Positions 2,269 through 4,242 of a stretch of DNA of 18,058 nt are shown here, piece after piece (within the stretch, counting starts at the first letter, position 1; the number at the start of each line of letters is the position of its first letter). The stretch lies in the IMG/VR virus record IMGVR_UViG_2695420538_000011. One strand, given 5' to 3'. This stretch comes from a virus. Lineage: Duplodnaviria > Heunggongvirae > Uroviricota > Caudoviricetes. The translations under genes were made by a program, and so were the position numbers. The notes under the pieces were generated by a model, which saw only the letters and a program-made list of their open reading frames with translations, had not been told where the DNA came from and did no database searches.

Positions 2269-2876
2269 GCGGCCTCACTTCTGCTATTTCGCAGGTCTTT
2301 GAGTTTCTGTTGGTACTCTGCCTTGATCGCCTTGCACTCTTCGACAGTCCAGCGATGGCGGTTATGGTTTGATTCGATTTCGTCTACTGCTTCCTTCCCG
2401 ATGCGGCTAATCAGTTCGACGCGATACGGAACGAGATTTCCGCTTTTGTGCTGGTTGCACACCACGCATTGCTTGTGAATATTGCGTTCATCAAATCGGA
2501 GTTGAGGTGCCGCAGCAGTTGTCCGGTAATGTCCGGCATCCCACTGAGCAGACGTGAGCGTTCCGCACGAGATACATGGTAAGTCGCGGTCTCTTTCTCT
2601 GATGAAGGCGTTTACGGCTTGTTGGGCTTGTTTAATCCAGTAACTGCGGGGCTTTAAGGCGAGTTTTCGAATCTTCAGTTTATCTTTCTGTTTCTGCTCC
2701 TCTCGTCGTCGTTTCTTCTCTGCTGCTTTTTCCGCTTTTTCGCGTTCTTTGCTTCGTCGTTCCAGTGCTATCTTTGTTCCACACTCTGGAGAGCACCACC
2801 ACTGATTAGCGAATGCAGGGTGAAACCATTCCCGACATTCATCGTTTTTACATCGTCTTCGCGCTGGTTTAGCCAT
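2265..2876 (-). CDS. ninG: NinG (Rap), recombination-associated structure-specific endonuclease
   Basis: 203 aa, [40 protein letters not shown]..., with Cys-rich motifs and a basic coiled stretch. It matches lambda NinG from memory. Confidence 0.9.
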
Positions 2877-2929
2877 CGTCTTCTTCCTCGTGCATCGAGC
2901 TATTCGGATCGCTCATCAGTTCTGCGCAG

Positions 2930-3436
2930 TTATGGTCTGCCATGGTTTTCATGAAAACCCAGTTCTTTTTCTACCCTCTTCCTTTCTGCAATAGCGTCAA
3001 TGATGCTAGCAAATATTCCAAGATATTTGGTGCGCCCATCTACGCATATATTCGCAATCCACTTACATCTCTCTTTATTGAAATATACTCCAGTCACTCC
3101 TGACGAATTGGTTATTTTTCTCTTTTGGTTCTGTGCATTCTGTTGGTGTGTAACCAATCGAAGATTAGATAGCCTATTATCTGACCTTACTCCATTTATA
3201 TGATCAATTTTATACCCTAATGGAATCTCACCATTATTTATCATCCATATAACGTGGTGAGCATAAGTAATTACACCATCGATAGTTAACATCCTATAAC
3301 CATCACTCCTAATGTAACCAGCAACACTGCCAACCTTAACATTATTAGAAGGAGACACTTTCCATCTAAGTACACCTAAAACATCATCATATGATAATTT
3401 ATTTCTTAATTCGTCTATGTTGCTTATATTTCTCAT
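2930..3436 (-). CDS. HNH (HNH_3-type) endonuclease with a C-terminal AP2-like DNA-binding region; homing-endonuclease-like insertion in the nin region
   Basis: 168 aa. It carries a GYKIDHINGVRSDNRLSNLRLVTHQQNAQNQ HNH motif followed by a GVTGVYFNKERCKWIANI AP2-like segment. Local base composition is visibly more AT-rich than the flanking nin genes. Lambda has no gene between ninF and ninG. Confidence 0.8.
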   Translation of the reverse strand: MRNISNIDELRNKLSYDDVLGVLRWKVSPSNNVKVGSVAGYIRSDGYRMLTIDGVITYAHHVIWMINNGEIPLGYKIDHINGVRSDNRLSNLRLVTHQQNAQNQKRKITNSSGVTGVYFNKERCKWIANICVDGRTKYLGIFASIIDAIAERKRVEKELGFHENHGRP

Positions 3437-3578
3437 TATGTTCCACCATATTTAAGCATTCATATATACAACGCTCACACACATGAACTTCCAGCACATG
3501 CAGCTTCTGACCACAGTTAGCGCACGTTAAAGCTCGCTCGACGCTTTCTTGTTCGTAACTTCGATTTGGGTCAATCAC
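3399..3578 (-). CDS. ninF: NinF-like zinc-ribbon protein with a divergent C-terminus
   Basis: The [25 protein letters not shown] core matches lambda NinF as recalled. A GTG at 3578 overlaps the ninE stop (GTGA), the same coupling as lambda; the alternative ATG at 3620 gives the 73-aa track ORF. The C-terminal residues ([22 protein letters not shown]) are encoded by AT-rich DNA continuous with the HNH insertion. Confidence 0.6.
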
Positions 3579-3757
3579 CTTGTATTCCTCGCACGATGTC
3601 TTAGCCACCGGATATCCCACAGGTGAGCCGTGTAGTTGAAGGTTTTTACGTCAGATTCTTTTGGGATTGGCTTGCGTTTATTTCTGGAGCGTTTCGTTGG
3701 AAGGTATTTGCAGTTTTCGCAGATGATGTCGGTGATACTTCGTCGCTGTCGTCTCAT
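3575..3757 (-). CDS. ninE: NinE
   Basis: Start is at the internal Met ([60 protein letters not shown], 60 aa), matching lambda NinE from memory. Its ATG overlaps the ninB stop, so ninC and ninD are absent. Confidence 0.8.
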
Positions 3758-4194
3758 GCCGCCCTGTCTCCCCATCGCGCTTTCCATTCGAGAGCCAGTC
3801 GCGCTTCGTCCGACCACTTAACGCCACGCTCTGTACCGAATGCCTGTATAAGCTCTAATAGCTCCGCAAATTCGCTTACACGCATCCTGCTGGTTGACTG
3901 GCCTATTACCACAAAGCCATTCCCGGCAAGGTTAGGAACAACATCCTGCTGCTTTAATGCTGCGGTAAACACACACTTCCAGCTTTCTGCATCCAGCCAG
4001 CGACCATGCCATTCAACCTGACGAGAGACGTCACCAAGGCAAGCCCAAAGCTTTCGATTCTGGTCTAAGCTGCGGTTGCGTTCCTGAATGGTTACTACGA
4101 TTGGTTTGGTTGGGTCTGGAAGGATTTGCTGGATAGCTTGAATGGCGTTCTGCTGATGTGCTGGAGATCGAATTTCAAAGGTTAGTTTTTTCAT
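3754..4194 (-). CDS. ninB: NinB (Orf), recombination mediator
   Basis: Start is at the internal Met ([31 protein letters not shown]...), 146 aa, matching lambda NinB. The track ORF is extended by 6 codons upstream. Confidence 0.9.
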
Positions 4195-4210
4195 GACTTC
4201 CCTCTCCCCC

Positions 4211-4242
4211 AAATAAAAAGGCCTGCGATTACCAGCAGGCCT
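4211..4242 (-). terminator. Intrinsic terminator tR2
   Basis: On the minus strand an 8-bp GC-rich stem (AGGCCTGC / GCAGGCCT, 8-nt loop) is followed by TTTTATTT. It lies between ren and ninB, exactly where lambda tR2 sits. Confidence 0.65.

Follow-up and report, generated by a model that had tools for sequence, protein, structure and literature searches.

A probable HNH-AP2 homing endonuclease gene inserted inside ninF of a lambdoid prophage

Structure of the interrupted ninF locus

Alignment of an IMG/VR virus sequence of 18,058 nucleotides (IMGVR_UViG_2695420538_000011; hereafter the window, meaning the whole of this stretch) with bacteriophage lambda revealed that its ninF gene is interrupted by a 539-nt element, which contains a gene encoding an HNH-AP2 endonuclease of 168 amino acid residues. 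The window represents the early region of a lambdoid prophage, and its closest database match is a prophage of Escherichia coli strain 100117 (99.8% identity across 75% of the window and 100% identity across the region of interest). As defined by the alignment with lambda, the element occupies positions 2929-3467 of the minus strand, the strand for which all features of this locus are given, and is composed of a 31-nt leader, an intact open reading frame (ORF) of 507 nt at 2930-3436 (the HNH gene) and one further nucleotide. Lambda and the window are collinear up to GTGTGTGAGC and again from CTGCGCAGAACTG, with the ACTG of lambda between them corresponding to 543 nt of the window (3472-2930). 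In lambda this ACTG is flanked by GTGTGTGAGC and CTGCGCAG, and at most 4 nt of lambda are without a counterpart in the window. Under a stricter reading, based on identity only, 543 nt (2930-3472) stand in place of the ACTG. The most economical description of the aligned sequences is that 539 nt have been inserted between Cys codons 37 and 38, which are adjacent in ninF (lambda numbering), with three substitutions in the two codons on the 5' side of the insertion (CAC TGC to CGT TGT), which change His36 to Arg and are synonymous at Cys37. The idea that the insert itself supplies the fourth zinc-binding Cys was considered and dropped, the native Cys37 codon being kept (TGC to TGT) with the insertion lying 3' of it; this assignment is preferred because it is simpler and leaves every native nucleotide accounted for.

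The native 5' part of ninF (3468-3578) corresponds to lambda codons 1-37 and was recognized both by the lambda alignment and by the Pfam NinF model (7.5e-12). It is read into the insert, giving a chimeric protein, NinF', of 59 residues when translated from the GTG start also used by the Prokaryotic Genome Annotation Pipeline (PGAP) (3399-3578; the longest ORF extends to 3620). NinF' consists of the native residues 1-37, with the His36 to Arg change, and a 22-residue tail encoded by the leader and by the first codons of the HNH gene read in a different frame, so that its ORF overlaps the HNH start by 38 nt. It scores 45.3 bits against Pfam NinF (PF05810; cut-off 27.5) and keeps all four zinc-ribbon cysteines, C19, C22, C34 and C37 in lambda numbering. 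On the other side of the insert, the native ninF frame resumes directly after the stop codon of the HNH gene (TAA, 2930-2932): the displaced 3' end (2869-2928), identified by translation and differing from lambda by a single nucleotide, comprises 20 codons including the stop, i.e. 19 residues. It is out of frame with NinF', because 539 leaves a remainder of 2 when divided by 3, and in the window it is probably not translated. The displaced tail nevertheless retains the ATGGCTAA stop/start overlap with ninG together with the purine-rich ribosome-binding region of the latter gene.

The composition of the insert is foreign to its surroundings, with a GC content of 34.8% compared with 49-50% in the 500-nt flanks and 45.8% in the whole window. 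A Shine-Dalgarno-like sequence, GGTGGA, of presumed function, was read 5 nt before the ATG of the HNH gene (3442-3447), and no promoter-like or terminator-like sites were found on the coding strand of the insert.

These data bear directly on a sequence-only reading that preceded this analysis, in which an AT-rich HNH/AP2-like endonuclease gene was said to lie between ninF and ninG, to have replaced the native 3' end of ninF and to have left there the footprint of a free-standing homing endonuclease. The retention of the zinc-ribbon core by the ninF homologue, and its divergent tail, encoded by the AT-rich insert and overlapping the endonuclease start, were correctly recognized. The junction alignment and the GC comparison proposed at that time have now been carried out, and yielded a clean 539-nt insertion and the compositional contrast given above. 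As to the location, the ORF does lie between the conserved part of ninF and ninG, but the insertion itself is inside ninF. The supposed replacement of the native 3' end proved wrong, all 20 codons having been overlooked at 2869-2928. A homing endonuclease gene that landed between ninF and ninG and deleted the 3' end of ninF would explain why NinF' ends in a foreign, AT-rich-encoded tail overlapping the HNH start; the survival of the 20 native codons, stop included, and the at most 4 nt of lambda that lack a counterpart refute this possibility, which is left with practically no probability. Since all native 3' codons are kept after the HNH stop, the footprint is that of a gene split by a clean insertion rather than of a replaced 3' end, while the homing-endonuclease-like gene and the foreign composition on which the earlier interpretation was based still hold.

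The effect of the insertion on NinF is an exchange of its C-terminus. The acidic tail AELMSDPN...EEDD, conserved in almost all of roughly 105 NinF clusters of the protein database, is detached from NinF' and a basic tail takes its place. The distal part of this new tail is not conserved: in one carrier it stops after ...NMV, and in a second, 84% identical lineage of the element (see below) it diverges after LN. Since lambda can grow without its nin region, as known from the nin5 deletion, the insertion should cost the phage little.

The neighbours on both sides of the interrupted gene are unaltered. Upstream, ninE was located at 3575-3757 (Pfam NinE 5.3e-43; PGAP coordinates taken from the 100%-identical E. 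coli 100117 sequence) and downstream, ninG (rap) at 2265-2876 (Pfam NinG 1.7e-91), with ninB (3754-4212) and ninH (2062-2268) further out on the same minus strand. Overall, the plus strand of the window carries int followed by Ea22-like and RecT genes and then by rexB, rexA and cI, and the minus strand carries cII, O, P, ren, ninB, ninE, ninF, ninG, ninH, the NinI phosphatase gene and Q. In the interval 3575-4212 ninE directly follows ninB, the ninC and ninD genes of lambda being absent from this prophage.

The HNH-AP2 protein and its relatives

The deduced product of the HNH gene was assigned by means of Pfam, PHROGs, alignment with the homing endonuclease I-HmuI of Bacillus phage SPO1 and structure modelling. 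It matches Pfam HNH_3 over residues 58-102 with 70.1 bits (cut-off 24.8; 1.2e-19) and PHROGs family phrog_99, 'HNH endonuclease', at 2.5e-69. The core residues of HNH_3, namely D78-H79, N87, N91, N100 and N103, are present and align with the DH...N...N of I-HmuI (1U3E). Among 53 aligned homologues D78, N91, R93 and N103 are invariant, and H79, D86, N87, R88 and N100 are conserved in at least 90%. In the C-terminal part, the Pfam AP2 match remained below threshold by sequence (15.2 bits with a cut-off of 33.3; E 0.027), and precomputed PF00847 hits exist for several homologues. An AlphaFold2 model built on the alignment of 53 homologues has a mean predicted local distance difference test (pLDDT) value of 90. 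In a Foldseek search its top match in the PDB was I-HmuI 1U3E (E 6.9e-4, probability 1.00), while residues ~112-160 superpose on the AP2 domain of Arabidopsis TEM1 with a root-mean-square deviation of 1.3-2.3 Å (probability 1.00), and the C-terminal domain also matches AtERF1 and Plasmodium AP2 domains (probability 0.96-0.99). Taken together with the conserved residues, the predicted structure shows an intact His-Me finger and an AP2 DNA-binding domain, and the AT-rich HNH/AP2-like gene of the sequence-only reading can be accepted as such. A derivation of the 3' end of the HNH gene, ATGGCAGA, from an ADPNGQ-type ninF tail was also considered and dropped, as the GFHENHG motif is conserved at the C-terminus throughout the HNH family.

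The likeness to I-HmuI concerns mainly the catalytic stretch, IDHINGVRSDNRLSNLRLVTHQQNAQNQ, which aligns with VDHKDGNKDNNLSTNLRWVTQKINVENQ of I-HmuI, and the similar size of the two proteins (168 and 174 residues); their overall sequence similarity is marginal (phmmer E 0.064). I-HmuI, which nicks one strand of its target, differs in being encoded within a group I intron and in having another C-terminal DNA-binding region, devoid of an AP2 domain. An intron-encoded enzyme as the best fold match, and a coding sequence interrupted as it is by introns and inteins, raise the possibility of a self-splicing element, group I intron or intein, from which full-length native NinF would still be made. 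However, a search of positions 2700-3800 against Rfam at E <= 10 gave no relevant match to a group I intron, its two chance hits both lying outside the insert, and there is no space for an intron core because only 32 nt of the insert (31 on the 5' side and 1 on the 3' side) are outside the 507-nt ORF. Nor is the insert an intein, since its 539 nt are not a multiple of three, it has its own ATG and TAA, and the stop of NinF' is located inside it. A self-splicing origin is consequently regarded as extremely improbable.

An N-terminal HNH combined with a C-terminal AP2 domain in a small free-standing phage gene is shared with the HNH-AP2 homing endonucleases of phages, cyanobacteria and protists, among them the 'IPA-HNH' genes of Vibrio phage ICP1, and this combination is a recognized homing-endonuclease architecture in phages (PMC10448857, citing Magnani et al., 2004). 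The IPA-HNH genes of ICP1 are too divergent for the Pfam HNH_3 model (PMC10448857), against which the protein described here scores 70 bits. The closest phage relatives, with 47-51% identity over 95-97% of the length and the same architecture, are HNH proteins of Klebsiella and Escherichia siphophages such as KpS2, vB_KpnS-VAC111 and MezzoGao, which are annotated as HNH or homing endonucleases and belong to lytic phages, where they occur in unrelated contexts and none in a nin region. On these grounds the element within ninF is very probably a homing endonuclease gene of the free-standing HNH-AP2 type. No description of it was found in the literature; the gene is already machine-annotated as 'HNH endonuclease' in public genomes, and its insertion site in ninF is newly described here.

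Distribution and site specificity of the insert

The 543-nt stretch was found in 45 of 5,426 complete E. coli genomes, including the enteropathogenic E. coli (EPEC) prototype E2348/69. All but one of these copies are full length, with 98.2-100% identity and always under a NinF annotation; the remaining copy (Eco_70239, L035 1263-2491), in which the HNH gene is split by an IS3-family element, is the sole disrupted one among the 45. Flanking nin genes are present in 2,183 of the E. coli genomes, which places the occupancy at roughly 2%, with about 2,140 genomes having the flanks only. IMG/VR yielded 30 more copies at 98-99% protein identity, with identical junctions wherever the sequence is complete, and one relative at 39%. 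Of these 30 ORFs, 28 are intact (one of them cut by the contig end), another has a frameshift and the last is missing the start of the ORF. Four further copies (98-99%) came from a metagenome scan, in which the other relatives are distant (<=51%). Sequenced phage isolates of the INPHARED collection lack the insert: all 414 matching records, that is lambda itself and 413 others, match the flanks only. For lambda, phage 21, 434, Sf6, the P22-like phages and about 400 other phage records this match amounts to 93-98%, with nothing in between, in agreement with the earlier claim that lambda has no such gene at this place. Two findings that could have undermined the sequence-only reading did not materialize, as the new NinF tail was never seen without the HNH gene among the 5,426 E. 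coli genomes, and the window and almost every other copy have an undamaged ORF. A copy of the HNH gene at another genomic site was not detected in the E. coli, IMG/VR, representative-genome or metagenome scans.

Some annotations and records around the insert deserve mention. Most full-length insert copies (26 of 28) have GCA as codon 155 of the HNH gene, which opens an ORF of 50-56 residues in a different frame, terminating in the native NinF tail and annotated by PGAP as a second 'protein NinF' (L003 1570-1740); the window has a GTA variant at this codon, producing TAG in the frame of the native tail (2869-3040, minus strand). This second 'NinF' is probably an annotation artefact. In E. coli Z1323CEC0006 (L003 1631-2137), PGAP calls the HNH gene an incomplete pseudogene although its 168-residue ORF is intact, which looks like an annotation error arising from overlapping 'NinF' calls. 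The record MW057783.1, 'Campylobacter phage CJLB-4' (48,361 bp), gives a ninE-ninG match with coordinates and identity equal to those of lambda, and looks like lambda DNA under a different name.

The junctions are identical in all 37 loci examined, and the presence or absence of the element is polymorphic at one nucleotide position, with 121 empty and 30 occupied loci, mostly from IMG/VR. The insert is at least 98.2% identical everywhere. Its 21 polymorphisms comprise 12 synonymous and 9 non-synonymous ones, giving a ratio of non-synonymous to synonymous polymorphism (pN/pS) of about 0.2 (P = 3e-4 versus neutrality), which indicates that the HNH protein is maintained by purifying selection. 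Such selection, as well as the orientation of the gene, which is that of the early operon, would also fit an HNH protein domesticated by the phage for a function in its life cycle, comparable to the terminase-associated HNH of HK97-like phages. Against this, the gene is distant from the packaging genes and interrupts another gene; about 98% of related prophages and every sequenced phage isolate possessing this nin region lack it; and its relatives, which are annotated as homing endonucleases, are scattered over unrelated lytic phages and do not exceed 56% identity. Domestication is thus considered very unlikely.

The only block common to all carriers extends from the ninF start to the native ninF stop codon. 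Upstream of the carrier ninF, ninE or NinX may be located, and downstream at least seven different sequences occur, including ninG and a KilAC antirepressor gene. In the 130 nt of ninF on the 5' side of the junction, about 20 haplotypes were distinguished among 30 carriers, spanning both lambda-type and P22-type (MLSPSQSLQYQK) N-termini, and many of these exact haplotypes also occur empty among the 121 insertion-free loci. Such a spread over different ninF alleles could be due in part to ordinary recombination. Indeed, the boundaries of ninF, at which the shared block exactly ends, are typical places for lambdoid mosaic joints, as expected if the element were a passive mosaic module that entered ninF once by an illegitimate event and has since been distributed by homologous recombination in the ninE/ninF/ninG flanks, either serving some other phage role (for example excluding competitors, or general DNA processing) or decaying. 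Purifying selection on the ORF and an architecture characteristic of site-specific homing enzymes argue against such a module, and so does the contrast between an insert with at least 98.2% identity and flanks that differ by 2-7%, with single-nucleotide polymorphisms located within 12-60 nt of the junction.

A second lineage of the element provides further evidence on this point. The protein P0002, encoded on a 909-nt contig (L156), is 84% identical to the HNH protein at the amino acid level and is the only relative found between 56% and 99%; the representative-genome and metagenome scans returned no additional members of its lineage. Its gene follows a ninF-like 5' part ending in ...IHVCEKCIYVLLNAGDDHEDNN and a stop, at the same place in a divergent ninF, and the ninF-like part has the same C-E-x-C-I-Y-x-x-L-N tail start as NinF' of the window. 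On the 3' side there is a remnant of an ADPNGQMLE-type native ninF tail, followed by ybcO (L156 1-640). This 3' junction is unlike that of the window, as the ORF has lost its own stop and continues for eight more codons across the ybcO start. The presence of two lineages, at 99% and 84%, at an identical nucleotide position of ninF genes that have themselves diverged argues for site specificity over a single accidental insertion, and hence against the passive module.

Possible homing and breakage at the insertion point

The reading preferred here is that a free-standing homing endonuclease gene of the HNH_3 plus AP2 type, with an I-HmuI-like core, invaded the dispensable ninF; taken as a whole, this explanation is regarded as probable. 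According to it, the HNH gene would be expressed from the delayed-early pR transcript along with the nin genes, as suggested by an insert in which neither promoter nor terminator was found. During lytic growth, or upon co-infection with a lambdoid genome whose ninF is empty, the enzyme would nick or cut the uninterrupted ninF near codons 36-38, and recombinational repair off the occupied allele would copy the element into the cut gene. The occupied allele is proposed to be immune, its target being divided in two by the insert.

The same segment of ninF may also be a place where prophages break. Five independent NinF variants (P0091, P0107, P0110, P0155 and P0156; loci L168-L172, with ninF from position 2501 onward in each) are joined C-terminally to unrelated sequence. 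In all five, the break lies no more than 3 nt beyond codon 36, in the abundant VCSDCC allele (...GTGTGC[T/G]CCGAT|T|G|), corresponding to positions ~3468-3475 of the window. Beyond the break, four of them continue into the lysis or late (virion) region, with P22 tail needle, ejection protein, tail-terminator region and near-holin sequence, respectively, and the fifth (L171) continues to the contig end. They are interpreted as apparent rightward deletions carried by defective prophages. Of five frameshift variants, three map to ninF codons 34-36. A rough binomial estimate for the clustering of the junctions is about 1e-3, and a looser cluster of junctions is also seen near the first CxxC of ninF. 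This concentration of deletions and frameshifts at the HNH insertion point may represent a cleavage footprint or a breakage hot spot. In addition, two common empty alleles, GTGTGTGAGCAC (Cys-Glu-His, EH) and GTGTGCTC[A/C]GAT (Cys-Ser-Asp, SD), have identical flanks but differ in 6 of 7 adjacent bases right beside the point of insertion (window 3470-3478, in comparison with L173 and L174-L293), and the change from EH to SD could be a target-escape variant resistant to cleavage. In its most far-reaching form, this idea would make ninF a site of recurrent nuclease-driven breakage, at which the HNH enzyme acting in trans drives homing and, when no template is available, large rightward deletions, with the SD patch as an escape allele. 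Such a scenario is doubtful and is put forward as speculation; if true, one direct cause of the decay of prophages in E. coli and Salmonella would be a selfish element of phages.

Whether the element is still spreading by endonuclease-driven homing, beyond what ordinary lambdoid recombination achieves, has to be weighed separately. Polymorphism in the first 10 nt of the 3' flank is lower in carriers than at empty sites (position +4 variant in 1/37 versus 23/121, P = 0.017; position +10 variant in 0/37 versus 13/121, P = 0.04), these counts having been obtained with anchors inside the HNH gene and from samples that are not independent. Several considerations speak against the preferred reading. 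The depletion just mentioned fits a short co-conversion tract, but tight linkage predicts the same. Cleavage by the HNH protein is a prediction, as is homing. The element is rare, being present in about 2% of nin-bearing E. coli genomes, and some carrier genomes have up to six nin-region copies with only one of them occupied, which means that prophages residing together are not being swept by it, although silence of the element in lysogens may be all that lies behind this. The deletion hot spot belongs to the VCSDCC allele, whereas the occupied allele looks VCEHCC-derived. Unlike the usual neighbours of homing endonuclease genes in lytic phages, ninF is non-essential. Finally, the ordinary recombination by which lambdoid phages exchange gene-sized modules could alone spread one ancestral ninF::HNH allele over many backgrounds. 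The rarity of the element, the persistence of empty copies alongside an occupied one in the same chromosome and the predicted status of cleavage would all be natural for the passive module discussed above; in view of the selection, architecture, site and identity data, that alternative is rated as unlikely, and the balance tilts modestly towards an element that may still be homing.

The arrangement at ninF has counterparts among free-standing homing endonuclease genes that split a phage gene, such as mobE in nrdA of Aeromonas phage Aeh1 and the gene 39/60 split of T4. In both of these systems the two halves are expressed and assemble into a working enzyme. The likeness consists in an endonuclease ORF with its own start and stop, located in a coding sequence without intron or intein, and in an upstream fragment that ends in codons of the insert. 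The window differs in that its 19-residue downstream NinF piece is without an evident start codon and has probably been lost. A difference of another kind separates it from the IPA-HNH genes of ICP1, which adjoin essential genes in lytic phages, as homing endonuclease genes of lytic phages tend to do (PMC10448857), whereas the gene described here lies inside a non-essential gene of temperate phages.

In biological terms this would be an ordinary selfish element in a dispensable gene, and its main value is that of a convenient lambda-based homing system for temperate phages. Free-standing homing endonuclease genes have been well studied in lytic phages (T4, T5-like phages, ICP1) and little in temperate lambdoid phages, the mosaicism of which is usually credited to general recombination alone. 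The presumed empty target is present in lambda itself, and the occupied allele in the well-known EPEC strain E2348/69. Because the element is only 539 nt long, homing, co-conversion and any share of nuclease genes in lambdoid mosaicism or prophage decay should be directly measurable.

A second HNH endonuclease gene, unrelated to the one in ninF and encoding 200-203 residues, was noticed in the nin/replication region of other lambdoid prophages (L002 4444-5055; L170 1199-1801), the L170 copy having NUMOD4 and HNH_3 matches. One of its carriers is the prophage otherwise closest to the window, in which this gene stands in place of the window's ren. Several endonuclease genes seem to accumulate in lambdoid nin regions.

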